64,000 bases of DNA, from the NCBI RefSeq assembly GCF_988243305.1, contig NZ_OZ547136.1. One strand, given 5' to 3'. The translations under genes were made by a program, and so were the position numbers. The notes under the pieces were generated by a model that ran no database searches, was not told where the DNA came from, and worked only from the letters and a program-made list of their open reading frames with translations. The number at the start of each line of letters is the position of its first letter. The stretch's first letter is position 1. Shown here one piece after another: positions 1-33,458 of the stretch.

Positions 1-93
1 GAAAATAGCGTCTTTCTGCATGTTCATATCGTCGCGGTTCAGACATGAAGGGCTGTGAGAGATCAGAACATGAATATTGATAAAGTTAGACAT
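1..93 (-). CDS. casC: CasC/Cas7 (Cascade backbone subunit), N-terminal 31 codons only; gene continues beyond window start
   Basis: Reverse complement of 1-93 translates [31 protein letters not shown], the recalled CasC N-terminus; ATG at 93-91 lies 12 bp downstream of the casB stop. Confidence 0.8.
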
Positions 94-105
94 AGAAAGG
101 TTTCC

Positions 106-588
106 TTACGCATTTTTGTTTGTGGTCAATACAAAATCTTCCAGAAGTTGCTGGCGTTCGCGCTTTCCCCACCAGGTCAACATCCTGGCCATTAATGGCC
201 AGTCAAGTACGGGTTCGGCGTGAGTAAGTAATCGACGTAACTGGACCATATCGGCTGTTCTGTCAGCCCGAATTAATTGAAAGATACGGCGCTCGTTAAT
301 TCTTCCACTATTGGCTAAAGCTCTTCCCAACGAGATACCTGTTGTTTGCTCCGGTTTTTTGTCCTGATGTCGGATGACATTCTTTCCTGCGCTCAGGCAA
401 AACACCATGCGCAAAAGAGCCTGCTGGTGACGTGGGTTTTCCCAACCAAAAGGTTGCACCAACCGATAAAACGCAGGGATATCGCGTAATTCATCAGGTT
501 CTGAAACACGTCTAATTTGCGCACATGCTCCATTATCCAGTTGTTGCCAGGCTCGATATAAAGCCATTGCATCAATTTCATCAGCCAT
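106..588 (-). CDS. casB: CasB/Cse2, Cascade small subunit (160 aa)
   Basis: ORF track 106..588 (-), 160 aa, the recalled length of E. coli CasB; 8-bp overlap with casA end, typical operon coupling. Confidence 0.9.
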   Translation of the reverse strand: MADEIDAMALYRAWQQLDNGACAQIRRVSEPDELRDIPAFYRLVQPFGWENPRHQQALLRMVFCLSAGKNVIRHQDKKPEQTTGISLGRALANSGRINERRIFQLIRADRTADMVQLRRLLTHAEPVLDWPLMARMLTWWGKRERQQLLEDFVLTTNKNA

Positions 589-2089
589 TTGATGGCCCTC
601 CTTGCGGTTTTAACTCCCGTAAATGTTTGTATAGCGTGGCGCGGGCAAGCGCTAATGTGCTTATTAATTTAGGATGATGTGCATAGGGAGCTACAGATTG
701 ATTAAATAGCATTTCACACAATTGATGAAGTTTGTCTCGTAAATCAGCTATTACCTCATCAGCCTGGGAAAAATTAATTTTCGCCAATACATCTGGAATT
801 AATAATTCACTCTGTCGATAGAAATGCCTTTCTGCAGTCTCATGAACAGAGACTCCGGCCCCTTTGAAGTCTTTATTTTTAAACCCTTCTGCAAAGGTAT
901 ATAACGCCTTGCGTAAGGCTGTTTTATACCCCAAACCAACAGTCACTATTTCGTTTATAACATTGCCGTATTGTTGCCACCCCTGATTAAACATCAGCAC
1001 ATCATGACGTCGTTCAAGAATAGATGCTTGATTATTACGATATCCCCCCATAATCAATTCAAGAGGACTTTGCGGCGCAATATTTCTGAATTGATTCACA
1101 ACCGCCGCCACGCGATTTCCATTTTCATTTTGAATAATCTTATCTACCACAACTCGGCTGATTTGCGTCCATGATGGTGCGGAGGTGGTGAAAGCAAGAA
1201 ATTTTTCCTCAACCTTCCCTTTCTTGACTGTTACCAGACAAGGGGAATGCGGATGGGGCCATAGTCCATTAACTGTAAAGGTAAATTTTTCCTTAAGAAA
1301 ACCGGTATAACGCAAATTGCTTTCCTGTCCACAGCAAGAACATTTACCAATCCCAATGGGATCGCATAGTTCAATATGCGCTGGTTGCCAGAATAAACCA
1401 CGGACAAACCCAATTGACGAAGCTGGCACAGATTCATTGGGCTTGATAGGCTTAATCCAGGTAGGTTGGTTTTCCGTATGTAATTCATTGGGAAATTGTT
1501 TTTGAAGACGAGGTATTGTGAGGACATTGAGTAATACCGTCGAGCGAAGATCGATCCCACATACGAAGGTGGTTATAGGTGTTCCTCCACGTAAACCGCT
1601 TTTAAAGCCACCACCAAAACCAGGTGCCTGATTCGCCTGGTTGAATAACGCAATCGCAGTGCATCCACCACATAATGCTTCACCCTGCCCCGGTTGATTG
1701 ACAAATGCACAATTCGTCGCGCCGCTTACCCCAGCCAACAGTTTTTCCATTGGAGTCACATCATTTGCTTTGACACCTTTGGTCTGCATAAAGGGATGTT
1801 CTGCGTGATTAAGGTAGAACATATCTATCCACGGCGCGATGAGTTGTTGAAACTCATCTTCAGTGAGCGGATTCATTATGCGATGTCGAAATTCAACGTC
1901 ATCTTTTGCCGGGGCGATAATTTGTCCAATGCAAACCAGCAGTGCTAAAGCGGCCAGTTCCATATCGTCACGGGGCAAACTTAATCGCCACTGATCTCTA
2001 CTGCAGTATAGCGATTGCAGATTTAGGATTTGGACTTTCCCCCCGTTTCGCGGGCGTACAGGGATCCAGTTATCAATAAGCAAATTCAT
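581..2089 (-). CDS. casA: CasA/Cse1, Cascade large subunit (502 aa)
   Basis: ORF track 581..2089 (-), 502 aa starting MNLLIDNWIPVRPRNGGKVQILNLQSL; length and position between cas3 and casB fit type I-E. Confidence 0.9.
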   Translation of the reverse strand: MNLLIDNWIPVRPRNGGKVQILNLQSLYCSRDQWRLSLPRDDMELAALALLVCIGQIIAPAKDDVEFRHRIMNPLTEDEFQQLIAPWIDMFYLNHAEHPFMQTKGVKANDVTPMEKLLAGVSGATNCAFVNQPGQGEALCGGCTAIALFNQANQAPGFGGGFKSGLRGGTPITTFVCGIDLRSTVLLNVLTIPRLQKQFPNELHTENQPTWIKPIKPNESVPASSIGFVRGLFWQPAHIELCDPIGIGKCSCCGQESNLRYTGFLKEKFTFTVNGLWPHPHSPCLVTVKKGKVEEKFLAFTTSAPSWTQISRVVVDKIIQNENGNRVAAVVNQFRNIAPQSPLELIMGGYRNNQASILERRHDVLMFNQGWQQYGNVINEIVTVGLGYKTALRKALYTFAEGFKNKDFKGAGVSVHETAERHFYRQSELLIPDVLAKINFSQADEVIADLRDKLHQLCEMLFNQSVAPYAHHPKLISTLALARATLYKHLRELKPQGGPSNG

Positions 2090-2504
2090 TTGTTCTCCTT
2101 CATATGCTCCGACATTTCTCCTGCATTTCTATACGTCGGAACACTTCCGTTATCGGTAAAAACAAAGAAAAAATACGGCGTAATTAATTCAATAATCACA
2201 TTCACTGCAAAAATATATTCATTGGTTTAATACAATTAACCTATGCATATATTAAGATGTGTTGAATTGTTTAAAGACAATAATGCATGCATTTCAAATC
2301 TGCAAGTTATTCGTTTTATTATCAAAGAAATTTTTTAGTTATAATAATTACCATAAATTTTATTACATAAAATATTCATACTGTGAATATAAAATCTCAT
2401 ACCGGGAAATTAAAAGAAGATGTACATTGTGCACCTTCCCTACTTAAGTAGGGATAAACCGTTATTGGTCTTGTTATCGTCATTGATACCAATCATTCCC
2501 GAAG
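2090..2504. promoter_or_regulatory. AT-rich cas3-casA intergenic region, expected site of the Cascade operon promoter (H-NS silenced, LeuO activated in E. coli)
   Basis: About 415 bp of strongly AT-rich, curved-looking DNA (runs such as ttattatcaaagaaattttttagttataataattaccataaattttattacataaaatattcatactgtgaatataaaat) directly upstream of casA; promoter identity is from established knowledge of the locus, exact -10/-35 not determined. Confidence 0.5.
2436..2461 (+). repeat. Solitary CRISPR-repeat-like palindrome (TTCCCTACTTAAGTAGGGATAAACCG) 44 bp downstream of cas3 stop
   Basis: Shares 5-prime TTCCC and 3-prime GGGATAAACCG with the I-E repeat GAGTTCCCCGCGCCAGCGGGGATAAACCG; central 16-bp perfect palindrome CCCTACTTAAGTAGGG replaces the repeat stem. 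Confidence 0.45.
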
Positions 2505-5171
2505 TTATTTGGGATTTGCAGGGATGACTCTGGTCATCCCTTCATCCCGAGTGTAGGTAATAACAATATTATTACCCTGCCAGATCCATCCATCCTGATT
2601 CTGTTTCCCTTCCAGCCAAAGTAACCCATCTTCATCTACTACTTCAGAAAAACTACGTTTCCAGGTGAAGGGTACATTGACGCGATTAAGTGCTAACGCC
2701 TCATACTGCTGTTCATGACTTAGGTCCTCGTAGACCTGGCCATCGAGCAGTTGTTTACCTGAAGACGTTTGTACATAAGGCAATAATGGCAGGCTCATTT
2801 CCCCATCCCTCGTTACCGCAAGAATGGTTTCATCGTTATCCTGCAAGCTATATTCTTCAGCCCACTGCAGAACCTTACGAGCCTTGAACCTTTTTTCACA
2901 CTCGGCGCTTTCAAACTTATCCATGCCTTTGATGACCCATTCTGGCTCATCCATTTCCGCATCATCGTAAATGCTATCCAGCCATTGCCGGTAGGCATCA
3001 GGGAAAAATAAGGATGCTCCATTAAGTTCCTCAATATGTTGCTGCGTCCGCCACATGACTCTAACGTTGCTATAAATATGCTCATGTCGTCCGTAACCTT
3101 CGCCATCAGGCAGCAAAATGGTGGCAAGAGGAATCTCAAAACCAACGGGGCGATATTTACGATGATGGCGATGTAAACGGCCCAATCGTTGGAAAAGCAA
3201 ATCTGCGGGACAATGCTGAGTAATTAACCAATCAAAATCAACGTCGAGTGATTGTTCCACGACCTGTGTGGCAACAAGTATTCTTCCAACATTTCGCTCC
3301 CCATTTTTCCCAAAATTACTAATAACACGATTCTCTTTTTCACGGCGATCGTTCAGCGTAAAGCGCGCATGAAACAAATCTATATCTACTTGCGTGTTAT
3401 TTAGTTCCTTTAACCGTTGGTGGCATAGTTGTGCAACATCAACCAAATTGCAGATAAGACAGACTTGTGCACCCGCATTTGCCGCTGCGATCATTCGCTC
3501 TAACATCGTAAGGTCAGGTAACATGTCAGCTAAATAAATAGGTTCTGGCTGAATCGAAAAGCGGGGCGGGAGTTGTTCTGGATGAGCTAACAGATCAAAA
3601 CGTTGCGCACCATTCACACCTCGCCAGTTAATGAGTGGATATGCGGAGTTATTTTCCTCTGGATCTGTATGCAGACCATAAGTATCCAGAAGTTTCTGTT
3701 TTTGTTTCATTGGTAGAGTTGCGGAAAGAAGAATAACACTCCCCCCCACATCAGCCTGAGCCTTGAGCACAGCCTCCAGCAAGCCGTTCATATACGTGTC
3801 GTAAGCATGAACTTCATCAACAATTAAAACACTTCGACCAATTCCCAAACCACGGATAAAGCGGTGTTTAACTGGCAATACCGATATCAACACCTGATCA
3901 ATCGTGCAAACGCCTATTTGCCCAAGAAACACTTTCTTATTGCTTTGTGACAACCATTGGCAACACTGAACCCACGCTTCTTCTTGCCCCTGCTCAGTAA
4001 ATGCGCGTGATTTTATTGATTGAAAAAGGTGGTTAAAACGTGAATTACCATGAGCAAGAATAAGATTTGGGGAGGTAAATAAACGGCTCGCGTTCGCTTC
4101 CATTCTGCTGAGCATTGCATTTGCAGTAGCTTGTGTAGGGAGGGCAAAAATAACACTATCCGCAAGTTGTTGGTCAATAAGTTTCCAGGCATAGGCCAGC
4201 GCTGTTTCGGTTTTACCTGATCCCGTAGGTGCCTCAATCACCGTCAGCCCGGGAGCTGTAGGAAGAGCATCAACCAACACCTGTAATTGTCTTGGTTGAT
4301 AGCCATTGTCCAGTAAGGCATGTACGCCGTCATAACTACGCTTATTTGATACAAGGCCACTCAACTCAAGTACCCGACACGCATCCTGTTGTCTATCCTG
4401 AAAATATTTTCTTAGCGCTTGTATGCCTGAAGGTGCATCTTCTTTGAATAGAAAGGTATCCGTTGTGGTCCAGGAACCTAACCAGTCAGCAAGCGAGCAA
4501 AAACCTGCTAACAATGATGAACAATCAGGTGGTATATCGTTTATAGATAACCCGGCTGGTGTTAAAAATAATGCTTCGAGTACAGATATCCACTCCTCAC
4601 GAGCCTGTTTATCTTGCGCAGCATAAGATGCCAGAGAAGCTGGCATTTCCCAACGCGACTTATCTTGATCCTGGGAATGTAATATAAAACCATGATGTCC
4701 TGTAACGGCCTCTACCCAAGGAAACCAGGACTCATAAGGATGAGGAGCGGCATCAAAAAAACTGAAAAAATCCCCGGGAGATTGCTCTGAAAGTGAATCC
4801 TGGTTAAACCAATACAGACCGGCTGCACCATGATTAAATTTACGGCACATTTGTGTTGATGGACCATTAAGTGATGGCGTTGCAGGATTTAATTTCAGCC
4901 AACTTTCTGCTGATTTATATTGGAATCGTATATCAAACTTTCCGATATCATGAAGGGCAATGAAAAATAACAGCCAGGCTTTCACCTTCTGTTTTGATAG
5001 CATTTCATTTCGGCAAAAAGCATTTTGTAGTACGACTGATTGATCCCACCAGCAATCTGCAACAGCTGCAACATCCAGGCAATGATAAATCAACAGATGA
5101 ATATCATTTCCTTTCGTCAGGCTTTTTGAGGATTTCCCCCAGTAATGACATATATATTTAAAAGGTTCCAT
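2505..5171 (-). CDS. cas3: Cas3 HD-nuclease/SF2 helicase (888 aa)
   Basis: ORF 888 aa; HD motif (ALHDIGKFD), Walker A (APTGSGKTE) and DEVH box (VDEVHAYD) visible in translation. Confidence 0.95.
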   Translation of the reverse strand: MEPFKYICHYWGKSSKSLTKGNDIHLLIYHCLDVAAVADCWWDQSVVLQNAFCRNEMLSKQKVKAWLLFFIALHDIGKFDIRFQYKSAESWLKLNPATPSLNGPSTQMCRKFNHGAAGLYWFNQDSLSEQSPGDFFSFFDAAPHPYESWFPWVEAVTGHHGFILHSQDQDKSRWEMPASLASYAAQDKQAREEWISVLEALFLTPAGLSINDIPPDCSSLLAGFCSLADWLGSWTTTDTFLFKEDAPSGIQALRKYFQDRQQDACRVLELSGLVSNKRSYDGVHALLDNGYQPRQLQVLVDALPTAPGLTVIEAPTGSGKTETALAYAWKLIDQQLADSVIFALPTQATANAMLSRMEANASRLFTSPNLILAHGNSRFNHLFQSIKSRAFTEQGQEEAWVQCCQWLSQSNKKVFLGQIGVCTIDQVLISVLPVKHRFIRGLGIGRSVLIVDEVHAYDTYMNGLLEAVLKAQADVGGSVILLSATLPMKQKQKLLDTYGLHTDPEENNSAYPLINWRGVNGAQRFDLLAHPEQLPPRFSIQPEPIYLADMLPDLTMLERMIAAANAGAQVCLICNLVDVAQLCHQRLKELNNTQVDIDLFHARFTLNDRREKENRVISNFGKNGERNVGRILVATQVVEQSLDVDFDWLITQHCPADLLFQRLGRLHRHHRKYRPVGFEIPLATILLPDGEGYGRHEHIYSNVRVMWRTQQHIEELNGASLFFPDAYRQWLDSIYDDAEMDEPEWVIKGMDKFESAECEKRFKARKVLQWAEEYSLQDNDETILAVTRDGEMSLPLLPYVQTSSGKQLLDGQVYEDLSHEQQYEALALNRVNVPFTWKRSFSEVVDEDGLLWLEGKQNQDGWIWQGNNIVITYTRDEGMTRVIPANPK

Positions 5172-5470
5172 TAATAGCCTCCCTGTTTTTTTAGTATTAT
5201 CGATGATATCAGTGGACTATTTTTCGATGCTGCTCATAAATATCGAATTACAGTGATATACACATGTCTTGCCTCCCTGCAAAGAAGAGACTAACATTCG
5301 AATTGCTTAGGTTCGAACGCTGGCCTCAGGTTGATAGAAATATCGCCTGGGGCTTTTGTCCATCTGGAACCTCGCGAATGCTTAACGCCAGACAGCCTCA
5401 AGCACCCAACGCCATTCTATACCTGATAATTCTTCCAGCGGCGTTCACGTTTAAAATCAGGAATGCTGCT

Positions 5471-5512
5471 CGCAAAATAAAAACGCCCCCATCATTTCTG
5501 ACAGAGGCGTTT
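5471..5512 (-). terminator. Putative rho-independent terminator downstream of cysH
   Basis: Inverted repeat aaacgcc...ggcgttt followed on the minus strand by a U-rich run (plus strand cgcaaaataaaa); located just past cysH stop. Confidence 0.4.
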
Positions 5513-5529
5513 AATTTATCCGGCAATAT

Positions 5530-6264
5530 TTACCCTTCGTGTAACCCACATTCTCTTTTTAAGCCAAAGAAACGCGTTTCTTCTTCCGCCATGCCGGGTT
5601 CCCATTTACGGGTTGTATGGGTATCACCGACCGATAAATATCCTTCATCCCATAATGGGTGATATTTCAGGCCATGTTTTTGCAGGTACTGATAAATAGT
5701 TCGGTTATCCCAGTCGATAATCGGCAGCACTTTAAATACGCCACGCTGAATTGCCAGCACCGGTAAATTGGCGCGGCTGCCGGATTGTTCACGGCGCAGG
5801 CCAGCAAACCAGGTTTGCGCATTCAGTTCTTTCAGCGCCCGGTTCATCGGTTCGACTTTGTTGATGTCATTGTACTTTTCAATGCCTTCAACGCCCTGCT
5901 CCCATAGTTTACCGTAGCGTGCTTCCTGCCAGGCGGCGCTTTCGGTAGCGCGGTACACTTTCAGGTTGAGCTTGAGTTTGTCCGTTAACTCGTCAATAAA
6001 GCGGTAGGTTTCCGGGAACAAGTAACCCGTATCGGTGAGGATCACTGGAATATCCGGGCGAATCTGATTCACCAGATGCAGGCTCACCGCCGCCTGAATG
6101 CCAAAGCTGGAAGAAAGTACATATTCACCGGGCAGATTATCCAGCGCCCAGGCAACGCGGCCTTCAGCGTCCAGTTTTTCCAGTTCGGCGTTAGTTTCCG
6201 CCAGCGCCAGAATGCGATCTACCTTCGGCAGTTCGTTCAGGGCGTTTAGATCGAGTTTGGACAT
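5530..6264 (-). CDS. cysH: Phosphoadenosine phosphosulfate (PAPS) reductase (244 aa)
   Basis: Internal Met of ORF 5530..6417 gives [23 protein letters not shown]..., 244 aa; the longer ORF start would run through the REP element, so the shorter start is used. Confidence 0.92.
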
Positions 6265-6280
6265 AAGTTCCTCACAGTTT

Positions 6281-6324
6281 GCCTTGCCTGATGCGACGCT
6301 CACGCGTCTTATCAGGCCTACAAG
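6281..6324. repeat. REP (repetitive extragenic palindromic) element between cysI and cysH
   Basis: gccttgcctgatgcgacgctcacgcgtcttatcaggcctacaag: classic REP imperfect palindrome. Confidence 0.6.
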
Positions 6325-6337
6325 ACCGGGCTGATGG

Positions 6338-8050
6338 TTAATCCCACAAATCGCGCGCCGGATCGAGCACCGGGCGAATGATGCCCGCACGCACCGTAAA
6401 GTCGCCGAAGCCTTCACCCGCTTCGCGCTCTTTCGCCCACCGCCCTATCAGTTCATCAAGCGACGCCAGGATTTCCGACTCGGTGATGTTTTCTTTATAC
6501 ATCCGTGGGATACGTGTCCCAATGCGGTTGCCGCCAAGATGCAGGTTGTAGCGACCCGGCGCTTTACCCACCAGGCCCACTTCCGCCAGCATCGCGCGAC
6601 CACAACCGTTCGGGCAGCCTGTTACACGCATCACGATATGCTCATCGCTGACACTATGTTTCGCCATTAAATTATCGATGTTGTCGATAAAAGACGGCAG
6701 GAAACGCTCCGCTTCCGCCATCGCCAGCGGGCAAGTCGGGAATGACACGCAGGCCATTGAGTTTTCACGCTGTGGCGTGACGGCATTCATTAACCCGCTC
6801 TCTTTGGCGATCTTCTCGATCTTCGCTTTCTCGCTTTCCGGTACACCCGCGATGATAAGATTCTGGTTCGCCGTAATGCGGAAATCACCTTTGTGGATCT
6901 TCGCGATCTCCAGCAGGCCAGTTTTCAGCGGACGCCCCGGATAATCAAGGATGCGTCCATTTTCGATAAACAGCGTCAGGTGCCAGTTATCATCAATACC
7001 TTTAACCCAGCCAATACGATCGCCGCGTCCGGTAAACTCATACGGACGAATCGGTTCAAATTTGATCCCCGCGCGACGCTCCACTTCCGCTTTAAACGTC
7101 TCAACCCCCACGCGCTCCAGCGTGTATTTGGTTTTGGCATTTTTACGATCGGTTCGGTTACCCCAGTCACGCTGAGTTGTCACGACGGCTTCCGCCACCG
7201 CCAGCGTATGCTCCAGCGGCAGATAACCAAACTCACTCGCCGTGCGGGCGTAGGTTTTCTTGTTGCCGTGTTCGATGGAAAGCCCACCGCCCACCAGCAG
7301 GTTAAAGCCAACCAGCTTGCCGTTTTCGGCGATTGCCACGAAGTTCATGTCGTTGGCATGCAGATCGATATCGTTCTGCGGCGGGATCACTACCGTGGTT
7401 TTGAATTTACGCGGCAAATAAGTCTGACCGAGGATCGGTTCTTCATCGGTGGTGGCGACTTTTTCCTGATCGAGCCAGATCTCCGCATACGCGCGGGTAC
7501 GTGGCAGCAGATGTTCAGAGATTTTCTTCGCCCATTCATATGCTTCCGCGTGCAACTGCGACTCGTAAGGGTTCGAGGTGCAGAGTACGTTACGGTTCAT
7601 GTCGTTAGCAGTCGCCAGCGCATCAAGACCGACCGAGTGCAGCATCTGGTGCACCGGTTTGACGTTCTTTTTCAGAATGCCGTGGAACTGGAACGTCTGG
7701 CGGTTGGTCAGGCGAATGCTGCCATAAATGGTGTTTTCACCGGCAAATTTATCGATCGCCTGCCACTGTTTGGTGGTGATCACGCCACCCGGCAGACGGC
7801 AGCGCAACAGCATCGCGTGGCGCGGCTCCAGCTTCTGTTCAGCACGTCCGGCGCGAATGTCGCGGTCATCCTGTTGATACATGCCGTGGAAGCGGATCAG
7901 CAGAAAGTTATCGCCCTTAAAGCCGCCGGTCAGACCGTCGTTTAAATCTTCCGCAATGGTGCCGCGCAGGTAGTTGCTTTCAAGCTTCATGCGCTCGGCG
8001 TCTGTCAGTTTTCCTTCGACCACTAAAGGCCCTGGATGTTTTTCGCTCAT
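6338..8050 (-). CDS. cysI: Sulfite reductase hemoprotein beta subunit (570 aa)
   Basis: 570 aa ORF, C-terminal siroheme/4Fe-4S region ([18 protein letters not shown]...TGCPNGCGR); directly downstream of cysJ with 1-bp overlap. Confidence 0.95.
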
Positions 8051-9849
8051 TAGTAGACATCTCGCTGATAACGGCGCTCTACGCGCAGCTCACTTAAAAA
8101 TTCATCCGCCGCTTCGGTGTCCATGCCACCAAATTCGGCAATCACTTCCAGAAGTGCCTGCTCAACATCTTTCGCCATGCGATTAGCGTCGCCGCAGACA
8201 TAAATGTGGGCACCGTCATTGATCCAGCGCCACAGCTCCGCGCCCTGTTCGCGCAGTTTGTCTTGTACATAAACTTTTTCTTTTTGGTCGCGCGACCAGG
8301 CAAGATCGATGCGGCTCAATACGCCTTCTTTCACGTAGCGCTGCCACTCCACCTGGTAGAGGAAATCTTCCGTAAAGTGCGGGTTGCCAAAGAACAACCA
8401 GTTTTTACCCGGCGCTTCGTCAGCGGCGCGCTGCTGCATAAAGGCGCGGAACGGCGCGATGCCGGTGCCTGGGCCAATCATAATCACCGGGGTTTCTGGG
8501 TTGGCTGGCAGGCGGAAGTTGTCGTTATGTTCGATAAATACGCGGACTTCGCCCTCTTCTTCCACGCGGTCCGCGAGGAAGCTGGAGGCACCACCGGCAC
8601 GGGCGCGGCCTTCCACGTCGTAACGCACCACACCAACGGTAACGTGCACTTCGTTCTCGACTTCCGCCTGCGAGGAGGCGATGGAATACAGGCGCGGGGT
8701 CAGCGGGCGCAACAGGTTAATCAGCGCTTCGGCATCCAGTTGCGCCGGAGAGAAACGCACCATGTCGACAATCGGCGTGGTCGCGGCGTAATGCTGTAAC
8801 TTCGCTTTATCGCCCACCAGCGGCAGCAGCGTTTCGCTGCGGGTAAGCGTGGCATAGTTCTCAACAATGTTGGCGGTGTTGACGGTCAGTTCGAAGTGCC
8901 ACTGTAGCGCTTCGTTCAGAGGCAACGTTTTGCCCTCGACGGTGACAGGTTCATCACCTTTCAGCCACAGCAGTTCGACAAGTTCTTTCACCAGTGCCGG
9001 ATCGTTCTGATACCAGACGCCCAGCGCGTCACCCGGCTGGTAACGCAGGCCCGAGTCACCTAAGTCAATTTCGATATGGCGAACGTCTTTTTCAGAGTTA
9101 CGCCCGGTAATTTTCTGGTTAACAGAGAGGCTCGCCACCAGCGGCGCGTCTTTGCTGTACGGGCTGGTGTGGATTTCATTTACCGCGCCAGTAGCGACGG
9201 ATTGCGAAGGTGCCGCGACAGGCGCACGCGATTTAAGCGCATCAACCACGCGGGCGCGCCACTCGATGGCAGCAGCCTGGTATTCAACGTCGGCATCGAC
9301 ACGGTCGAGCAGGCGTTCACCGCCCAGTTCCGCCAGCTTGCTGTCAAAATCTTTCCCGGACTGGCAGAAAAATTCATAAGAGCTATCGCCGAGGCTAAAC
9401 ACGGCAAATGCGGTGTTTTCCAGCTTCGGCGCTTTTTTGGAGAACAGGAACTTATGCAGCGCGACGGCTTCTTCCGGCGGTTCCCCTTCTCCTTGCGTTG
9501 ACGTCACCACGATAAGCAGTTTTTCGCTGGCGATTTGTTTGAATTTATAGTCGCCCGCGTTCACCAGCTTAACGTTCAGTTTTGCCGCCAATAAATCATC
9601 GCGTAACGCTTCAGCAACCCGGCGCGCATTGCCGGTTTGTGAAGCGGAGATAATAGTTATACCCGGCATTTCTGCGGCGGGCGCTGGCGTCGCTGCAAGC
9701 GCAGCTGGCTGCTGGTTGAGCACGCCCCAGAAATAGCCAGAAACCCAGGCAAGCTGGGTGGGAGTTAAATCGGTCGTGGCCGCCTGAAGGCGTGCCAGTT
9801 GCTCCGGGTTCAACGGAAGCAACGCGGAAGGTGGGACCTGTGTCGTCAT
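8050..9849 (-). CDS. cysJ: Sulfite reductase flavoprotein alpha subunit (599 aa)
   Basis: 599 aa ORF with flavodoxin-like N-terminal and FAD/NADPH reductase C-terminal regions; ends ...RYQRDVY. Confidence 0.95.
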
Positions 9850-10164
9850 GCGTCGTTATGTTCCAGTAAGCAAAGCTGTTTCTGCGCCCTGTCAGCGCCC
9901 ATAAAACAGAAGAGAAGGTAAGGTTAACGGGGTGAACGGTGTGGATTAAAGACGGGATAGCGATAACTAATAACCAAATCGACTAACCTGTTTTAGCAAT
10001 AGTCTTTAACAACAAAATAGATTAACCAACCCAATGAAAAACAAATGAATTTAGCCAATCATTAAGATAAATCAGCGATTTTGCGCAACAAAGTCGTTTT
10101 AGATAATGCGAAAAAACAGCCTTTCCGGTACTCTACGGCGGTTTTATCGTCCTGTAGAGAAATT
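9850..10164. promoter_or_regulatory. cysJIH promoter / queD upstream region (CysB-regulated cysJ promoter expected here)
   Basis: Intergenic, AT-rich, immediately upstream of cysJ on the minus strand and queD on the plus strand; specific CysB sites not resolved by eye. Confidence 0.4.
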
Positions 10165-10530
10165 ATGATGTCCACCACGTTATTTAAAGATTTCACCTTC
10201 GAAGCCGCTCACCGCTTACCACACGTCCCGGAAGGACATAAATGTGGTCGCCTGCACGGGCATTCCTTTATGGTGCGACTGGAAATTACCGGGGAAGTCG
10301 ATCCGCATACGGGCTGGATTATCGATTTCGCTGAACTGAAAGCGGCGTTTAAGCCAACTTATGAGCGCCTCGATCACCATTATCTCAATGATATTCCAGG
10401 TCTGGAAAACCCAACCAGCGAAGTTTTAGCAAAATGGATTTGGGATCAGGTTAAACCCGTTGTGCCGCTGTTAAGTGCGGTGATGGTAAAAGAAACCTGT
10501 ACTGCAGGCTGTATCTATCGCGGCGAATGA
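10165..10530 (+). CDS. queD: 6-carboxy-5,6,7,8-tetrahydropterin synthase (121 aa)
   Basis: Internal Met of ORF 10081..10530 gives [35 protein letters not shown]..., the PTPS/QueD Zn-binding motif; 121 aa. Confidence 0.9.
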
Positions 10531-10607
10531 TAAGAGTGTGTCGGCGGTCAATTTCCCTTAAGTAACGCTATGTTAGGGTGTTGTGTTCTGGATATCTGAG
10601 GCATGAC

Positions 10608-11879
10608 ATGGAAGACGACTGCGACATTATTATTATTGGTGCCGGTATTGCAGGCACCGCTTGCGCGTTACGCTGCGCGCGAGCGGGTTTATCCGTTTTG
10701 TTACTCGAACGCGCTGAAATCCCCGGCAGCAAAAATCTTTCCGGCGGGCGGTTATATACCCATGCACTCGCGGAACTCCTCCCGCAGTTTCACCTGACCG
10801 CGCCTCTTGAACGACGCATCACTCACGAAATCCTTTCCCTGTTAACGCCGGATGGCGCAACGACGTTTTCCAGCTTACAGCCCAGCGGTGAATCCTGGAG
10901 TGTATTACGTGCACGCTTCGATCCGTGGCTGGTTGCCGAAGCTGAAAAAGAAGGTGTCGAATGCATCCCTGGTGCGACGGTGGATGCGCTGTATGAAGAA
11001 AACGGCAGGGTGTGTGGTGTCATTTGTGGTGACGATATTCTCCGCGCCCGTTATGTGGTGCTGGCAGAAGGTGCCAACAGCGTCCTGGCTGAGCGTCACG
11101 GGTTAGTGACTCGTCCTGCTGGCGAAGCGATGGCGTTGGGGATCAAAGAAGTGCTGTCGCTGGAAACATCCGCTATTGAAGAACGTTTTCATCTGGAGAA
11201 TAACGAAGGCGCAGCGTTGCTGTTCAGCGGCGGGATCTGTGATGACTTACCCGGCGGCGCATTTCTTTATACTAATCAACAAACGCTCTCGTTAGGGATT
11301 GTTTGCCCGCTCTCTTCACTTACGCAAAGTCGTGTTCCGGCAAGCGAGCTGCTGGCTCGCTTTAAAACGCATCCGGCAGTGCGCCCGCTTATCAAAAACA
11401 CGGAATCACTGGAGTATGGTGCGCATCTGGTGCCAGAAGGTGGCTTACACAGTATGCCGATGCAATACGCCGGTAACGGCTGGCTGCTGGTGGGCGATGC
11501 GTTGCGCAGTTGCGTCAATACCGGAATTTCCGTGCGCGGCATGGATATGGCGCTAACTGGCGCGCAGGCGGCGGCACAAACGCTGATAAGCGCCTGCCAG
11601 CACCGCGAGCCGCAAAATCTGTTTGCGCTTTATCATCACAACGTCGAGCGCAGCCTGCTATGGGATGTTCTACAACGTTATCAGCATGTTCCGGCGCTTT
11701 TGCAACGCCCTGGATGGTACCGTGCGTGGCCTGCGTTAATGCAGGATATTTCCCGCGATTTATGGGATCAGGGTGATAAACCTGTTCCACCGCTGCGCCA
11801 GTTATTCTGGCGTCATTTACGTCGTCACGGCCTGTGGCATCTGGCGGGCGATGTTATCAGGAGTCTGCGATGTCTGTAG
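10608..11879 (+). CDS. ygcN: FAD-dependent oxidoreductase, FixC/ETF-quinone oxidoreductase-like (423 aa)
   Basis: N-terminal dinucleotide-binding fold DIIIIGAGIAGTACALRCARAGLSVLLLER; start taken at MEDDCD. Confidence 0.85.
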   Translation: MEDDCDIIIIGAGIAGTACALRCARAGLSVLLLERAEIPGSKNLSGGRLYTHALAELLPQFHLTAPLERRITHEILSLLTPDGATTFSSLQPSGESWSVLRARFDPWLVAEAEKEGVECIPGATVDALYEENGRVCGVICGDDILRARYVVLAEGANSVLAERHGLVTRPAGEAMALGIKEVLSLETSAIEERFHLENNEGAALLFSGGICDDLPGGAFLYTNQQTLSLGIVCPLSSLTQSRVPASELLARFKTHPAVRPLIKNTESLEYGAHLVPEGGLHSMPMQYAGNGWLLVGDALRSCVNTGISVRGMDMALTGAQAAAQTLISACQHREPQNLFALYHHNVERSLLWDVLQRYQHVPALLQRPGWYRAWPALMQDISRDLWDQGDKPVPPLRQLFWRHLRRHGLWHLAGDVIRSLRCL

Positions 11880-12130
11880 CCCGTAATCTCTGGCGCGTTG
11901 CCGATGCGCCGCACATTGTTCCGGCTGACTCCGTTGAGCGTCAGACGGTACAACGGTTGATTAACGCTTGTCCGGCTGGTCTTTTTTCGCTCACACCGGA
12001 AGGTGACTTACGCGTTGATTATCGCGGCTGCCTGGAGTGTGGCACCTGCCGTTTGCTGTGCGACGAATCAACACTACAACAGTGGCGCTATCCGCCTTCC
12101 GGATTCGGCATCACCTACCGTTTTGGATAA
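11870..12130 (+). CDS. ygcO: Ferredoxin-like protein, FixX-like (86 aa)
   Basis: Short ORF overlapping ygcN stop, with a cysteine cluster (CLECGTCRLLCDE); start taken at MSVARN. Confidence 0.8.
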   Translation: MSVARNLWRVADAPHIVPADSVERQTVQRLINACPAGLFSLTPEGDLRVDYRGCLECGTCRLLCDESTLQQWRYPPSGFGITYRFG

Positions 12131-12146
12131 ATAATAAGGATAATTT

Positions 12147-12722
12147 ATGCCCCTCTTACACCTGCTCCGCCAGAATCCGGTGATTGCTGCCGTTAAAGAT
12201 AATGCCAGCCTGCAACTGGCAATCGACTCTGAATGCCAGTTTATTTCCGTGTTGTACGGCAATATCTGCACCATCAGTAATATCGTTAAAAAGATTAAGA
12301 ACGCCGGAAAATATGCTTTTATTCATGTTGATTTGCTGGAAGGCGCGTCAAATAAAGAAGTGGTGATTCAGTTTTTGAAACTGGTGACTGAGGCGGACGG
12401 CATTATCAGTACCAAAGCCTCAATGCTGAAAGCAGCAAGAGCGGAAGGTTTTTTCTGTATTCATCGCCTGTTTATTGTTGATTCAATTTCGTTTCACAAC
12501 ATTGATAAGCAAGTTGCGCAATCGAATCCGGATTGTATTGAGATCCTGCCTGGCTGTATGCCCAAAGTGCTGGGCTGGGTGACGGAGAAAATCCGCCAAC
12601 CGCTGATTGCTGGCGGGCTGGTGTGCGATGAAGAAGATGCGCGTAATGCGATTAACGCAGGTGTCGTGGCGCTTTCCACCACGAATACCGGGGTCTGGAC
12701 GCTAGCGAAAAAATTGCTTTGA
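12147..12722 (+). CDS. ygcP: GlpP-like glycerol-3-phosphate-responsive antiterminator family protein (191 aa)
   Basis: 191 aa ORF starting MPLLHLLRQNPVIAAVKDN; family assignment by recalled similarity. Confidence 0.8.
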   Translation: MPLLHLLRQNPVIAAVKDNASLQLAIDSECQFISVLYGNICTISNIVKKIKNAGKYAFIHVDLLEGASNKEVVIQFLKLVTEADGIISTKASMLKAARAEGFFCIHRLFIVDSISFHNIDKQVAQSNPDCIEILPGCMPKVLGWVTEKIRQPLIAGGLVCDEEDARNAINAGVVALSTTNTGVWTLAKKLL

Positions 12723-12757
12723 CGGGATAATCGTAACGAATTGAATTTGTGTGATTT

Positions 12758-12870
12758 GTAGGCTGCACGCCACATCCGACATTCAGCGTCTGATGCGACG
12801 CTTGACGCGTCTTATCAGGCCTACAAGTCCCCAGGCCAGAACCGTAGGCAGGATCATCCGGCTGCACGTT
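12758..12870. repeat. Cluster of REP elements (BIME-like) between convergent ygcP and ygcQ
   Basis: Several REP units: gtaggctgcacgccacatccgacatt, tgatgcgacgcttgacgcgtcttatcaggcctacaag, gtaggcaggatcatccggctgcacgtt. Confidence 0.55.
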
Positions 12871-13729
12871 ATTGGCAATCTGCGTGAATGTTTGTCACCA
12901 GTGCCTCCAGCACCACTTTCCAGTCATCAACCACGCCAACATCTGCCTGTGAAAATACCGCTGCACTGGCGTCATGATTAATCGCCACCACAAACTTGCT
13001 ATTGCGTACGCCCGCCATTAACGCTGCTGCGCCGGAAGCGCCAACAACAATACACACCTCAGGTGCCAGCAGATGTCCAGAAATACCAATCACTTTTTCG
13101 GCATCAACGCCACCGTTCATCACTCGTGCCCGACTGTAGCCCACTTCGGCTCCCAGCTTTTCTGCCAGCATAGCGATTTCCTGGTTATCTGCCTCTCCGC
13201 CCTGCCCCACCACCAGCACCCGTCTGGCCTCAGCTAATGGGTCGCGGGTAACATTTTTCAGGTTTTCTATGCTAACCAGCCAGTCGGGAAGCGCACCTGG
13301 GACAATTTTCAGTTGCTGCATACCAGAGGGCAACGTGGCGTTTTTCGCTGCTCCCGCCTGACGCGCCAGGGAAAGGCATAGCGGGCGTTTTTCTGTTTGC
13401 AGCGTCGCCGTTAGCGCATTTCCCCAGTGGGATTTGCGCACGCTTACGGTTGAAATATCTAACGAAGTCACCTGGCAGATGCTTGCACCATGTAAACGCC
13501 AGGCCAGCCGGGTCGACAGTTCATCACCAAACGTTCCCGGCGGAAAGAGAACAACGTCCGCTGGCGTTCGCTGCCACTGTTCCACCAGCGCATCCAGCAC
13601 CTGTTCCGCCACTACGGGCTGAGGTTCAATCTGCCAGTGTGCCAGGGTACAACCGCTGAAATCCTGTTCTGCCAGCCAGCTCGCTATTGCGGCATTCTCC
13701 TGATTTATTGTCACAATTGCGAGATTCAT
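12869..13729 (-). CDS. ygcQ: Electron transfer flavoprotein alpha subunit, FixB-like (286 aa)
   Basis: ETF-alpha C-terminal FAD-binding region; start at MNLAIVTINQ gives an ATGA overlap with the ygcR stop. Confidence 0.85.
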   Translation of the reverse strand: MNLAIVTINQENAAIASWLAEQDFSGCTLAHWQIEPQPVVAEQVLDALVEQWQRTPADVVLFPPGTFGDELSTRLAWRLHGASICQVTSLDISTVSVRKSHWGNALTATLQTEKRPLCLSLARQAGAAKNATLPSGMQQLKIVPGALPDWLVSIENLKNVTRDPLAEARRVLVVGQGGEADNQEIAMLAEKLGAEVGYSRARVMNGGVDAEKVIGISGHLLAPEVCIVVGASGAAALMAGVRNSKFVVAINHDASAAVFSQADVGVVDDWKVVLEALVTNIHADCQ

Positions 13730-14505
13730 GGCTGCATCCTTTGGCGTAAATAGTCCTGCCATAGCTTTTGCGCTTTTTCTGCTACCGTTTGCCCATCAAT
13801 CAGCGTCGCTCCGCGTTGTTGCTCTGCTCTTGCCAGTTGCCGACACTGCATCGCTGGCGATTCGGCAGCAACAGTTTTACGGATAATTTCTGCTTTCCCC
13901 GCCGCCATTCGCTGACGCATTCCCGGTACTGGCAAGGCCACTTCACCGCACTGACGCACGGCAATCACCGCAGGCAAGCGAACCCGGCAACAGCGCAGCC
14001 CGTTTTCAGTACGCTGTTCAAGGGTGATAAACGGCGCGTCGAGAGTAAAACGCTCCACCTGGGTGAAGCAGGGCCAGCCCAGCATTTCCGCCAGCAAAAA
14101 TGGCGTTTGCCCATTCTGCCCTTCGCTGCTTTGGCAGCCGGTAATTATCAGATCCAGCGGATTCTGGTACTGCCATTCGGCAATATGGCGAGCGACAAAT
14201 TCCGGCGCAAAGCGCAGATCTGCCGCCGTCTCCAGCAATACAGCTTCCTCAAACCCATGAGCCATGAGATAGCGCAGCCAGTGCAACGCCCGTTCATCCC
14301 CCATGCTCAACGCGGTTAAAGACATCGACGTACCGTTTTTTCTCTGCGTCAACAGCAGCGCGGCGGCAGCCTGTTCATCAGCACCGAGTAAACTTCGCAG
14401 AAGCGAAACATCCGGTCCGCTATTACCCTGAGCCGCCGCCTGCCACTCTTTTTCCGCCAGCATTCCGGCATCCGGTTCGGCTTTAAACGCTAACAGAATG
14501 TTCAT
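13726..14505 (-). CDS. ygcR: Electron transfer flavoprotein beta subunit, FixA-like (259 aa)
   Basis: Start taken at MNILLAFKAEPDAG; ETF-beta-like. Confidence 0.85.
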   Translation of the reverse strand: MNILLAFKAEPDAGMLAEKEWQAAAQGNSGPDVSLLRSLLGADEQAAAALLLTQRKNGTSMSLTALSMGDERALHWLRYLMAHGFEEAVLLETAADLRFAPEFVARHIAEWQYQNPLDLIITGCQSSEGQNGQTPFLLAEMLGWPCFTQVERFTLDAPFITLEQRTENGLRCCRVRLPAVIAVRQCGEVALPVPGMRQRMAAGKAEIIRKTVAAESPAMQCRQLARAEQQRGATLIDGQTVAEKAQKLWQDYLRQRMQP

Positions 14506-15820
14506 TCGCACCTCCAACATTTCCCGCCGCCACCAGCGGGAGTGCTTTGGTTTCTGGTGCCCATAGCCAGGTCACGACAAAACCAACCAACAACACAGCC
14601 GCCAGGAGCAATAAGGTGACTTGCATTCCCCACTGCGCCAGCACCCACGGCAGCAGGCCAGTACTTACTGCCGCGCCCAACCGACTCATGGCGGTGGCAA
14701 AACCGACGCCCAGCGAGCGAATGTCAGTAGGAAAACTTTCCGCAGGCAAAATGCCCACCAGATTACTGACTGCCGAAATGGTGGTGCTGAAGAGAACAAA
14801 AAGCAGCAGCGTTAATGAACTGCCGGAAGGCAAACAAGCCATCACTACCAGCGTTGCCGCCAGCAGCAAAAAACTTCCCAGCAAAAATTTGCGATGTGCC
14901 AGCAGGTGCGTCAGAACTAATCCCAGCAGCGCACCCACAATTAACAACGCATTAAGCATCAGGCTAGCGGTCAACGCATCTTCCAGACCAATAGTCTGGG
15001 CGATAGTTGGCAGCCAGGTATAAATCACAAACCATGGGATTACGAGGCAGACAAAGAAGACGCTGTTAAACGCCGTGCGCCGCCAGTAGCGCGAAGAGAA
15101 CAAGGTTTTGATGTGTTTATGGGTCGCCGTTGCCACTTCATCGCCCAGTAAAACATGGGGACCAAAATAGCGATGCACGATAGCGTGAGCTTCTGCAAAA
15201 CGCCCCTGGCGCAGTAGCCAGCGTGGCGATTCTGGCGTTCCCCAGCGTAATAACGTAATCAACAATGCGGGCAGAGCTGCCGATGCCAGCAGCCAGCGCC
15301 AGGCCTCCGGGCTTTCGCTAATAAAGTGATATCCGGCAATACTTGCCAGCACATAGCCTACGGTCCACACCACGCTGAATGCGCCCAGCAAAATACCGCG
15401 ATGGCGGCGCGGAGAAAATTCAGCCAGCAAGGTGTGGCCTACTGAGTAATCGCCTCCCAGACCAATGCCGATCAAAATGCGCAGTCCAATAAGATGCTCT
15501 GGCGTGGTGGCAAAAAATTGTAAGAACGAAGCGAGCGTAATCAGCAAAAAGCTGAAGGTGAAGATTTTTTGCCGACCAATATGGTCGGAGATCCACCCCA
15601 AAACCAGGCTACCGATAAACAGGCCAAGTAGCGCCGAGCCGCCAATCATTCCCGCCATAAACGGCGTCAGTTGCATGGCGGGTGTAAGCTGAATAATGGC
15701 GTAACCAATGACGCCGAGAACATAACCGTCGGTCAGGTGCGCCCCGAAAGTGAGCGCAGCAATTCGACAGTGAAAACGGTTAAGCGGTAAATCATCCATT
15801 CGCACCGGTGAAGTGTTCAT
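14483..15820 (-). CDS. ygcS: MFS sugar-porter family transporter (445 aa)
   Basis: Multiple hydrophobic helices, sugar porter motifs (GRQKIF, PESPRWL); start taken at MNTSPVRMDD. Confidence 0.85.
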   Translation of the reverse strand: MNTSPVRMDDLPLNRFHCRIAALTFGAHLTDGYVLGVIGYAIIQLTPAMQLTPFMAGMIGGSALLGLFIGSLVLGWISDHIGRQKIFTFSFLLITLASFLQFFATTPEHLIGLRILIGIGLGGDYSVGHTLLAEFSPRRHRGILLGAFSVVWTVGYVLASIAGYHFISESPEAWRWLLASAALPALLITLLRWGTPESPRWLLRQGRFAEAHAIVHRYFGPHVLLGDEVATATHKHIKTLFSSRYWRRTAFNSVFFVCLVIPWFVIYTWLPTIAQTIGLEDALTASLMLNALLIVGALLGLVLTHLLAHRKFLLGSFLLLAATLVVMACLPSGSSLTLLLFVLFSTTISAVSNLVGILPAESFPTDIRSLGVGFATAMSRLGAAVSTGLLPWVLAQWGMQVTLLLLAAVLLVGFVVTWLWAPETKALPLVAAGNVGGANEHSVSV

Positions 15821-18223: not shown

Positions 18224-18541
18224 AGTTAGCTCCAATTTCCGTAAGGCAAAAAAAAAGAAAGGTAACTTCCCCCGCGAGAGGGAAGTTACCTTTCTCATTA
18301 TCTCTGGTAACTGGAGATAATTTTTATCATAAGGGCATAATCGCTAATGTGATCGTAATCACAGTGTGATATTCGAATTGTCAAATAATTTTAAAAAGCA
18401 GAAGCGTGATTACTCTCACACAACACCACTACTTTCCATGTTATTTCTTATTGCAATTACTAGAGACCTGAGAAAAGTAATCCACCTGAAAGGGCGGCTT
18501 ACTTTTCTCTTTTTTTTGTCTATTACAAATGGGAATACGAT

Positions 18542-21324: not shown

Positions 21325-21370
21325 GTGAGGAAGGCCGGGCGGGAAACTGCCCGGCCTGAACATACCTGAA

Positions 21371-21508
21371 TGGTTATCCCCGCTGACGTGGGGAACATAA
21401 GTTCGACAACTTAAAAAATGATAACAAGTCCGGTTTATCCCCGCTGATGCAGGGAACATAATAAAAACTTTAACTAGTTCGGTTTATCCCTGTTGTTACA
21501 AGGAATAT
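21371..21508 (-). CRISPR. Degenerate CRISPR remnant: 3 decayed type I-E repeats with 32-bp and 20-bp spacers
   Basis: Plus-strand repeats tggttatccccgctgacgtggggaacat (21371-21398), cggtttatccccgctgatgcagggaacat (21431-21459), cggtttatccctgttgttacaaggaatat (21480-21508). Confidence 0.6.
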
Positions 21509-21962: not shown

Positions 21963-22418
21963 TGGTTTATCCCCGCTGGCGCGGGGAACTCCGTCAGTGT
22001 GCCAGTTGCTACTGTTTCCCATACGGTTTATCCCCGCTGACGCGGGGAACTCATCAGTGATATCCAACATTGCGGAGCTAAACGCGGTTTATCCCCGCTG
22101 GCGCGGGGAACTCTATAAATGTGCCATATACGGCGTTTGTTGCCTCGGTTTATCCCCGCTGGCGCGGGGAACTCCTCCCGGTGATGCGGGTTATGTGGCC
22201 TGCCGCCGGTTTATCCCCGCTGGCGCGGGGAACTCTTCGCCGCGTCAACAATTCGGACCTGTAAATCCGGTTTATCCCCGCTGGCGCGGGGAACTCATCC
22301 GGCGAACGCGCTACAGAGTACAGTTCACCGGTTTATCCCCGCTGGCGCGGGGAACTCGGAAACCGCCCCGGCGGTGGTTAGCTGTTTGCCGGTTTATCCC
22401 CGCTGGCGCGGGGAACTC
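21963..22418 (-). CRISPR. Type I-E CRISPR array, 8 repeats (29 bp) and 7 spacers (32 bp each)
   Basis: Plus-strand repeat cggtttatccccgctggcgcggggaactc at 21963, 22024, 22085, 22146, 22207, 22268, 22329, 22390; reverse complement is the canonical E. coli repeat, so crRNA is from the minus strand. Repeat at 21963 starts with t, repeat at 22024 has gctgAcgc. Confidence 0.95.
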
Positions 22419-24204: not shown

Positions 24205-24217
24205 GCGGGGAAGTTCT

Positions 24218-25111: not shown

Positions 25112-25125
25112 CAAAAGGAATTGAT

Positions 25126-26274: not shown

Positions 26275-26279
26275 TCGTA

Positions 26280-27185: not shown

Positions 27186-27203
27186 CTCAACCATAAAAAA
27201 TGC

Positions 27204-27217
27204 CAGCCCGAAGGCTG
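27204..27217. repeat. Target-site duplication (left copy) of IS4 insertion, CAGCCCGAAGGCTG
   Basis: Identical 14-bp sequence directly flanks both IS4 ends (also 28644-28657); the true duplication may be 13 bp given the palindromic target. Confidence 0.8.
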
Positions 27218-32726: not shown

Positions 32727-32797
32727 TAGAATGTCCTGAAAATTGCGGGTCTGTCAGGTGGAAACCTGTGACCAGAATAGAAGTGAGTTAGTAACAC

Positions 32798-33381: not shown

Positions 33382-33458
33382 AACCCTTTCCTCAAACCGC
33401 TATCATATGTAGATACAGTATATATCAATCTACATTGTAGATACGAGCTAATTTCGGC
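33382..33458 (-). promoter_or_regulatory. mazEF promoter/operator region with alternating palindrome
   Basis: Sequence tatcatatgtagatacagtatatatcaatctacattgtagatac contains inverted repeats (atgtagat / atctacat) directly upstream of mazE. Confidence 0.45.

Follow-up and report, generated by a model that had tools for sequence, protein, structure and literature searches.

The front half of a K-12-type Escherichia coli type I-E CRISPR-Cas locus, with a predicted mini-array between cas3 and casA

The first 5,171 positions of the window, by which we mean the whole 64,000-nucleotide stretch of DNA analysed, can be assigned with high confidence from sequence comparison to the front half of a chromosomal, K-12-type E. 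coli type I-E CRISPR-Cas locus, the downstream half of which is very probably intact in the source genome. The locus occupies the usual site, between iap and cysH, and its identity is already known: this is the textbook E. coli type I-E system, an assignment that is correct but ordinary.

Results

Layout and identity of the cas genes

All cas genes in the window (cas3, casA, casB and the start of casC) lie on the minus strand, and ORF calls in the window gave no frameshifts or internal stops (Table 1). An earlier note on this DNA had described these genes as intact, and we agree: the ORFs lie where the note placed them, match their HMMs over the full length and have the lengths of their K-12 counterparts. 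The note's "canonical overlaps" hold for casA and casB, which share 8 nt (ATGGCTGA, 581-588) in the sole overlap of the operon, but not for casB and casC, separated by a 12-nt gap (94-105), nor for cas3 and casA, with 415 nt between them.

Table 1. Features of the cas locus and of related elements in the window
Feature	Position	Strand	Evidence
casC (cas7e), first 31 codons only, ATG at 93, leaves window	1..93	-	ORF, HMM
casB (cse2/cas11e), 160 aa, intact	106..588	-	ORF, HMM, Pfam
casA (cse1/cas8e), 502 aa, intact, overlaps casB	581..2089	-	ORF, HMM, Pfam, PDB match
cas3-casA intergenic region, 415 nt, ~32% GC	2090..2504	.	base composition
Predicted target of mini-array guide, AAG PAM (2304-2306) plus protospacer	2304..2323	+	pattern search
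Degenerate mini-array, creR-like: psiR1 2433-2461, psi-spacer 2462-2492 (31 nt), psiR2 2493-2521	2433..2521	+	fold, repeat comparison
cas3, 888 aa, HD nuclease fused to SF2 helicase, intact	2505..5171	-	ORF, HMM, Pfam, motifs
Relic of hok/sok (sokX region) in the cas3-cysH interval	5251..5407	-	Rfam RF01794
Terminator-like hairpin after cysH	5481..5512	-	hairpin scan
Pair of degenerate repeats, with 5 and with 7 mismatches	21370..21459	-	repeat comparison
Second CRISPR array, in the ygcE-queE locus, with eight 29-nt repeats and 7 spacers	21963..22418	-	repeat search

Each product could be identified directly. Cas3 aligned to NF007248 over profile positions 1-877 of 878 (1609.8 bits) and contained the Pfam domains Cas3_HD, DEAD and Cas3-like_C_2, the fusion of HD nuclease and SF2 helicase expected of a type I-E system. 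The HD, Walker A and DEVH motifs claimed for it previously were located at residues 74-75, 317-321 (GSGKT) and 452-455, together with SAT at 483 and QRLGRLHR at 661. CasA, the large subunit Cse1/Cas8e that is the signature of the subtype, matched NF007247 over all of its 502 positions (E=1e-271) and TIGR02547 (E=3e-160), and its residues 1-502 matched the CasA chain of E. coli Cascade (PDB 4qyz_A) full-length. CasB was recovered as Cse2/Cas11e by TIGR02548 (E=3e-15; 56.7 bits against a cutoff of 28.5) and by PF09485, and the 31-residue fragment of CasC matched positions 1-29 of TIGR01869 (E=4.7e-11), with which Pfam concurs.

Comparison with K-12 and with the alternative cassette

The closest known system is that of K-12 MG1655 (cas3-casABCDE-cas1-cas2, b2761-b2754; structures 4QYZ, 4TVX and 5H9F). 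It has in common with the locus studied here the iap...cysH site, gene order, gene lengths, the 8-nt casA/casB overlap, the cas3-casA spacer of ~415 nt, the leader and the 29-nt repeat. The region aligned collinearly to K-12, with 96.8% identity at the DNA level and proteins of the same lengths, and we counted 31 substitutions in Cas3, 10 in CasA and 2 in CasB, the 31 N-terminal residues of CasC being identical. One difference lies in the cas-adjacent array, which in the nearest relatives of the window carries a loop variant of the repeat (...GCGTCAGCG...) in 34-36 copies. Synonymous divergence from K-12 was uneven along the operon (dS of 0.19 for cas3, 0.07 for casA and 0.02 for casB), which indicates a recombinant mosaic. 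Ratios of dN/dS were low (0.095 for cas3, 0.13 for casA and, based on just four differences, 0.28 for casB) and hence are consistent with purifying selection on the cas genes in the window.

A second type I-E cassette occurs in E. coli at the same locus, with the same gene order and flanking genes. In this alternative cassette (variant 2; FDAARGOS_1288, for example) Cas3 has 899, CasA 520 and CasB 178 residues, and its cas genes are too divergent from those of the window for detection by megablast. Its cas3-casA gap is only ~97 nt long and lacks the mini-array, and an intact hok adjoins its cas3. Judged by its sequence, the locus in the window carries the K-12-type cassette and not this alternative.

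The sequence between cas3 and cysH scored 104.3 bits against Rfam RF01794 (gathering score 59), and K-12 annotates sokX at the corresponding site. No Hok-like ORF was found between cas3 and cysH; the element is not a hok/sok type I toxin-antitoxin system but, like K-12 sokX, a relic of one. Window positions 5263-5529 match the variant-2 locus at 100% identity, and the similarity stops exactly where the intact hok of that locus starts. The relic marks the point at which the two alternative cas cassettes of E. coli join the shared flank. A terminator-like hairpin follows cysH, implying that cas3 has its own promoter within 5172-5480; cas3 is a transcription unit apart from casABCDE-cas1-cas2, a point on which the earlier note was silent. 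An ORF at 5264-5662 was set aside as probably spurious, as it lies in AT-rich intergenic sequence and overlaps cysH on the opposite strand.

CRISPR arrays in the window

The earlier note, which placed the cas-adjacent array beyond position 1, was silent on a second array inside the window (21963-22418); the cas-adjacent array itself was seen only in relatives. The second array has the 61-nt period of a type I-E CRISPR array and repeats of the same family as the cas-adjacent one, and its K-12-like leader ends in ...GGTTATGTTTAGA at 22419 and above. The two degenerate repeats ~0.5 kb from it are a decayed small array.

The cas3-casA spacer

In K-12, the cas3-casA spacer holds the Pcas(8e) promoter, controlled by H-NS, LeuO and CRP, and a divergent anti-Pcas promoter (PMC10011333, PMC7074321). 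Since the AT-rich spacer of the window is almost identical to that of K-12, expression is most likely H-NS-silenced and modulated by LeuO and CRP in the same way. A simple sigma-70 scan returned plus-strand promoter-like hexamers at 2293-2348, no strong minus-strand match for Pcas, and fewer promoter-like sites than in shuffled controls; the scan carries no weight for or against the K-12 promoter map. Two plus-strand ORFs (2030-2230 and 2259-2447) are probably spurious readings of AT-rich intergenic sequence and were set aside.

Completeness and activity of the system

The working of the system is established for the E. coli type I-E model. Cascade would form from CasA, CasB, CasC, CasD, CasE and a 61-nt crRNA, CasA would read an AAG-type PAM, and the crRNA would form an R-loop with the target. 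Cas3 would then be recruited, to nick the displaced strand with its HD nuclease and to reel in and degrade the DNA with its SF2 helicase (Walker A, DEVH), while Cas1 and Cas2 would add new spacers beside the leader.

Position 1 being the window edge, we infer the left extension of the locus from relatives. Exact-protein look-up placed the Cas3 of the window on many public contigs, the two closest of which differ from window positions 1-15171 by one base (L014; the mismatch, at 7848, lies outside positions 1-5171) and by three bases (L005). Both contigs encode full-length CasC (363 aa), CasD (224), CasE (199), Cas1 (305) and Cas2 (94) with no internal stops, and both have a leader identical to that of K-12 and a cas-adjacent array of 34-36 repeats beside iap. 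The order seen in these near-identical relatives supports the placement of the rest of casC, casD, casE, cas1, cas2 and the cas-adjacent array beyond position 1, downstream on the minus strand. Because L014 and L005 carry all downstream genes and the array, the system is very probably complete in the source genome; the earlier note had called it probably complete, and it is these relatives that uphold the call. Two complete E. coli genomes, each one base from window positions 1-5600, also have full operons and arrays. Since they diverge by ~1.1% over 17.6 kb, these genomes are, by this measure, not the strain of the window. A search of the species-representative genomes for exact 150-nt matches returned none. 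Outside the cas cassette, divergence between the window and the best-matching complete E. coli genomes is 1-2%, and for positions 5600-30000 no complete genome matched at full coverage above ~98%, the closest identity being 99.1% at 93% coverage. Among 5,426 complete E. coli genomes, 1,117 carry the front half of the locus at ≥80% coverage and 1,146 carry the back half. The similarity of these counts, which are totals only and do not pair the halves genome by genome, is in line with completeness.

The interference genes could be intact in the window and the system nonetheless degraded beyond it, if cas1 or cas2 had become a pseudogene, an IS had entered casC-casE or the array had been lost. 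Such a locus could not adapt, or could not form Cascade. Such decay does occur in E. coli: contig L008 encodes a Cas3 identical to that of the window yet has a premature stop (a nonsense codon) in cas1, IS1, IS3 and IS903 insertions interrupt cas genes in several complete genomes with the K-12-type system, and cas1 is flagged as a pseudogene in the variant-2 genome FDAARGOS_1288. Against this stand the five full-length downstream genes and long array of L014 and L005, the complete gene sets at 9 of the 10 places shown for this Cas3 allele, and the low dN/dS of the in-window genes, which disfavours relaxed selection. We consider degradation very improbable for the source genome.

A complete locus might still not work as immunity, if it were permanently silenced and survived through inertia or because it serves some other role, its arrays altered by deletion or recombination alone. 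This reading is unlikely but carries more weight than degradation. Between L005 and L014 the arrays differ at internal spacers and not at leader-proximal ones, so that they bear no sign of recent acquisition, and a promoter region that is AT-rich and resembles that of K-12 implies silencing by H-NS, as in that strain (PMC10011333). Yet cas3 and casA are under apparent purifying selection, catalytic motifs are conserved and leaders intact, and in K-12 de-repression yields a fully functional system (literature including PMC10011333). We favour a complete system of the K-12 type, most likely silenced as in K-12.

A predicted mini-array between cas3 and casA

The cas3-casA spacer also contains a degenerate, creR-like mini-array, with the cas3 stop codon falling within the psiR2 loop. 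The element occurs in 1,122 genomes. Its units psiR1 and psiR2 each fold as a 7-bp stem with a tetraloop, at the positions found in the canonical repeat, and the pair lies inside the cas locus, outside the arrays and with spacer-length separation, as expected of a regulatory mini-array. A pattern search with the psi-spacer returned a site that matches its positions 1-5, 7-8, 10-11 and 13-17 (14 paired positions), a pattern that occurs nowhere else in the window and for which chance predicts 0 matches. This predicted target lies 215-234 nt upstream of the casA ATG and overlaps the plus-strand hexamers described above. It represents a seed-proximal partial match to a PAM-flanked site near the promoter of the effector cas genes; any overlap with the mapped Pcas or H-NS site rests on PMC10120712. 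That the palindrome is a mere cas3 terminator or a chance match is unlikely, because the full 8-nt handle (ATAAACCG) is kept and the stem restored by paired changes, and because a second hairpin lies exactly one spacer length away and the PAM-flanked seed match is unique.

An element of this kind was predicted computationally for E. coli type I-E (Shmakov et al. 2023, PMC10120712); mini-arrays have been tested experimentally in P. aeruginosa I-F1 and S. enterica I-E, and the E. coli element has been predicted only (PMC10120712; bioRxiv 10.1101/2023.03.10.532045). The likeness to the regulatory mini-arrays and CreR of these reports extends to two repeat-like units around a ~31-nt spacer between cas3 and cas8e, an orientation opposite to cas3, a better-conserved repeat that retains the 5' handle, and a seed-biased partial match with an AAG PAM upstream of casA. 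Compared with the CreR of S. enterica I-E, which matches over 15 consecutive nucleotides, the match in the window is shorter and interrupted (14 paired positions, with a mismatch at position 9).

In K-12 an anti-Pcas transcript of 150-200 nt is reported on the strand of the mini-array, with no role assigned to it since 2010 (PMC7074321). We tentatively suggest, as a possibility we rate below an even chance, that this transcript may be the precursor of the mini-array. CasE would cut it to a ~60-nt cr-like RNA starting with AUAAACCG-UUAUUGG, which would guide Cascade to the AAG-flanked target, over the candidate anti-Pcas hexamers and upstream of Pcas. Cascade expression in the model E. coli I-E system, and synthesis of the guide itself, would thus come under negative feedback. 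In the literature searched we found neither a link between anti-Pcas and the mini-array nor experimental proof in E. coli. Cascade autorepression through a mini-array on the opposite strand is a possible extra layer of regulation.

Discussion

Beyond annotation the finding matters little; its value is for curation, recording a K-12-type cassette that is very probably complete, of a system that some one in five complete E. coli genomes possess. The genome backbone is otherwise like that of strains with the alternative cassette, and the locus illustrates cassette swapping, with the junction inside a hok/sok locus. It also keeps a predicted self-regulatory mini-array, the function of which would be cheap to test in E. 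coli.

The cas genes in the window form a type I-E operon

Four collinear minus-strand reading frames fill positions 1-5171. An earlier note had described them as intact cas3, casA and casB followed by the start of casC, and the open reading frames and a search of curated models confirmed this description: Cas3 matched NF007248 (1609.8 bits; profile positions 1-877 of 878), CasA matched NF007247 (E = 1e-271; 502 of 502 profile positions), CasB matched TIGR02548 (56.7 bits) and the 31-residue CasC fragment matched TIGR01869 (E = 4.7e-11; first 29 profile positions), in agreement with Pfam. CasA also aligned end to end with a crystallised E. coli Cascade subunit (4qyz_A), and the closest solved structures to Cas3 were the Thermobaculum and Thermobifida enzymes. 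All three motifs previously claimed for Cas3 were found (HD, residues 74-75; Walker A GSGKT, 317-321; DEVH, 452-455), together with SAT at 483 and QRLGRLHR at 661. The type I-E reading stands with minor corrections: cas3 is a separate unit, a second array lies within the window, and the proposed "canonical overlaps" hold only for casA/casB (8 nt, ATGGCTGA), the sole overlap in the operon segment, whereas casB and casC are 12 nt apart and cas3 and casA are separated by a 415-nt spacer of ~32% GC. GC content is 41-47% in the cas genes versus ~55% in the neighbouring cysHIJ.

Features of the cas region and CRISPR arrays (window coordinates unless a relative is named)
Feature	Position	Strand	Description
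casC/cas7e start	ATG at 93	minus	ORF, 31 codons, then off window edge
casB/cse2	588..106	minus	ORF, 160 aa
casA/cse1	2089..581	minus	ORF, 502 aa
Promoter-like hexamers	2293-2348	+	two pairs, overlapping predicted mini-array target
Predicted mini-array target	2304-2323	+	AAG-flanked, casA promoter region
psiR1	2433-2461	+	ACCTTCCCTACTTAAGTAGGGATAAACCG
psi-spacer	2462-2492	+	31 nt
psiR2	2493-2521	+	more decayed than psiR1; hairpin CCCGAA-GTTA-TTTGGG
cas3	5171..2505	minus	ORF, 888 aa
cas3-cysH gap	5172-5529		
sok region	5251-5407	minus	Rfam, 104 bits
Terminator-like hairpin for cysH	5512..5481	minus	
Two decayed repeats	21370-21459	minus	0.5 kb from in-window array
Second CRISPR array	21963-22418	minus	between ygcE and queE; 8 repeats, 7 spacers
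Cas-adjacent arrays of relatives	L005 18758-20921; L014 18758-20799		left of window edge

The sequence is Escherichia coli and the locus is a textbook, already known E. coli type I-E system. In this model system, CasE cleaves each repeat at the hairpin base, and Cascade (CasA1-B2-C6-D1-E1 plus crRNA) reads an AAG-type PAM through CasA before R-loop formation. Once recruited, Cas3 makes a nick through its HD domain and uses its helicase to unwind and degrade the DNA, with Cas1 and Cas2 inserting new spacers at the leader.

The K-12 MG1655 locus is collinear with the region (96.8% identity) with identical gene lengths; substitutions number 31 in Cas3, 10 in CasA and 2 in CasB, and the CasC fragment has none. 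Judging by dN/dS values of 0.095 (cas3), 0.13 (casA) and 0.28 (casB, from only four differences), these three genes appear to be under purifying selection. Synonymous divergence from K-12 is uneven, dropping steeply from cas3 (dS = 0.188) to casA (0.070) to casB (0.019), with no differences in the casC start, which indicates recombination breakpoints inside the operon and marks it as a recombinant mosaic. Positions 1-5600 matched somewhere in 5,425 of 5,426 complete E. coli genomes, mostly via the cysH end, but at least 80% of this stretch was covered in only 1,117.

Close relatives carry a complete system

It is very likely that the source genome's type I-E system is complete. The earlier note had thought so, and although the window itself cannot show it, the full gene sets of two near-identical contigs support this view. 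Over positions 1-15171, L014 (GCA_958430705.1) has one mismatch, at 7848, outside the cas region, and L005 (GCA_024369815.1) has three; both are essentially of one lineage with the window. Each encodes CasC (363 aa), CasD (224 aa), CasE (199 aa), Cas1 (305 aa) and Cas2 (94 aa) with 1-4 substitutions relative to K-12 and no internal stops in any of the five genes, followed by a 105-nt leader same as that of K-12 and 34-36 repeats. The L005 array extends to iap, and the L014 contig stops just past the array. Two complete genomes one base different from the window in the cas region also have the whole operon, and their arrays hold 7 and 19 repeats; they diverge by ~1.1% over 17.6 kb. An exact 150-nt search of the species-representative genomes found no match. 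At coverage of at least 80%, 1,146 complete genomes have the back half and 1,117 have the front half, counts that are totals and do not pair the halves genome by genome.

The identical Cas3 protein is widespread (697 index blocks by exact-protein look-up). One further contig encoding it (L008) bears a single-base nonsense mutation in cas1 (17449-18366, ...RRSV*QLRG...), therefore adaptation-defective versions of this allele circulate. Both this mutation and the IS insertions seen in cas genes of complete E. coli genomes count against completeness in the source genome.

The in-window array shares the 29-nt repeat of the cas-adjacent system, has a 61-nt period and has a K-12-like leader ending ...GGTTATGTTTAGA, so the window in any case includes crRNA templates for this Cascade. 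Its repeat is of the GCGCCAGCG form, whereas the cas-adjacent arrays of L005 and L014 carry a variant with T in the loop (GCGTCAGCG). Those two arrays have 31 spacers in common and differ only internally or distally, a pattern that points to deletion or recombination rather than to newly gained spacers.

A cassette junction lies in a toxin-antitoxin locus

A second, very different I-E cassette occupies the same site in many E. coli; the window carries the K-12-type cassette. In FDAARGOS_1288, an example of the alternative, Cas3, CasA and CasB are 899, 520 and 178 aa long; cas3 is ~97 nt away from casA and has an intact hok next to it. Window positions 5263-5529 are 100% identical to this alternative locus up to the start of its hok, placing the right-hand junction in the hok start codon region, near 5262, and therefore the swap point inside a toxin-antitoxin locus. 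No Hok-like ORF was found in the cas3-cysH gap (5172-5529), and K-12 has sokX annotated at the corresponding position; the K-12-type cassette keeps only a hok leader/sok relic.

The backbone right of cas is collinear with FDAARGOS_1288, including its IS4, LemA and TPM genes. Right of queE (23602-28630), ORFs correspond in order to LemA, three TPM-domain genes and the IS4 transposase (27284-28630) of that strain, the group standing just before eno. A segment of ~690 nt between mazG and relA (about 32767-33459), presumably mazEF from K-12 gene order, is missing from FDAARGOS_1288.

A mini-array opposite cas3 is predicted to target the casA promoter region

On the strand opposite cas3 we found a CRISPR-repeat-like palindrome, 43 nt past the end of that gene's reading frame, the first of two degenerate repeats around a psi-spacer. 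psiR1 keeps the full 8-nt 5' handle (ATAAACCG) and its stem is preserved by paired changes; the psiR2 loop includes the stop codon of cas3. Both fold like the canonical repeat, with the same dot-bracket (7-bp stem and tetraloop, positions 5-22). Within the first 17 psi-spacer nucleotides, the target matches positions 1-5, 7-8, 10-11 and 13-17; in I-E Cascade, the guide bases at positions 6 and 12 flip out and stay unpaired. This seed match lies 110 nt upstream of the mini-array on the same strand, and the AAG plus seed pattern occurs nowhere else in the 64-kb window, against a chance expectation of zero. All twelve retrieved K-12-type loci other than K-12 share one identical version of the element; in K-12 itself, psi-spacer positions 12 and 27 and target position 17 are different. 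With 1,122 complete genomes carrying it, the element is about as frequent as the K-12-type cassette.

A mini-array of this kind had been reported before: Shmakov et al. 2023 described and computationally predicted the E. coli I-E element between cas3 and cas8e, transcribed opposite cas3, with an AAG-flanked target overlapping an H-NS site upstream of Pcas (PMC10120712). A literature search found no experimental test in E. coli. In Salmonella, a Cas-regulating cr-like RNA (CreR) of the I-E system represses its PcasA using E. coli Cascade; that preprint makes no mention of anti-Pcas (bioRxiv 10.1101/2023.03.10.532045).

In K-12, cas3, casABCDE-cas1-cas2 and the arrays each have separate promoters; these are silenced by H-NS, Pcas8e is activated by LeuO and repressed by CRP, and a divergent "anti-Pcas" promoter yields a 150-200-nt transcript overlapping the cas3 3' end (PMC10011333, PMC7074321). 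The hexamer pairs over the predicted target could be this promoter. A transcript of that length starting there would span the mini-array, and the anti-Pcas RNA may be its precursor. Only a handful of positions in the cas3-casA spacer differ from K-12, and from this near-sameness we infer that the window locus would be regulated as in K-12.
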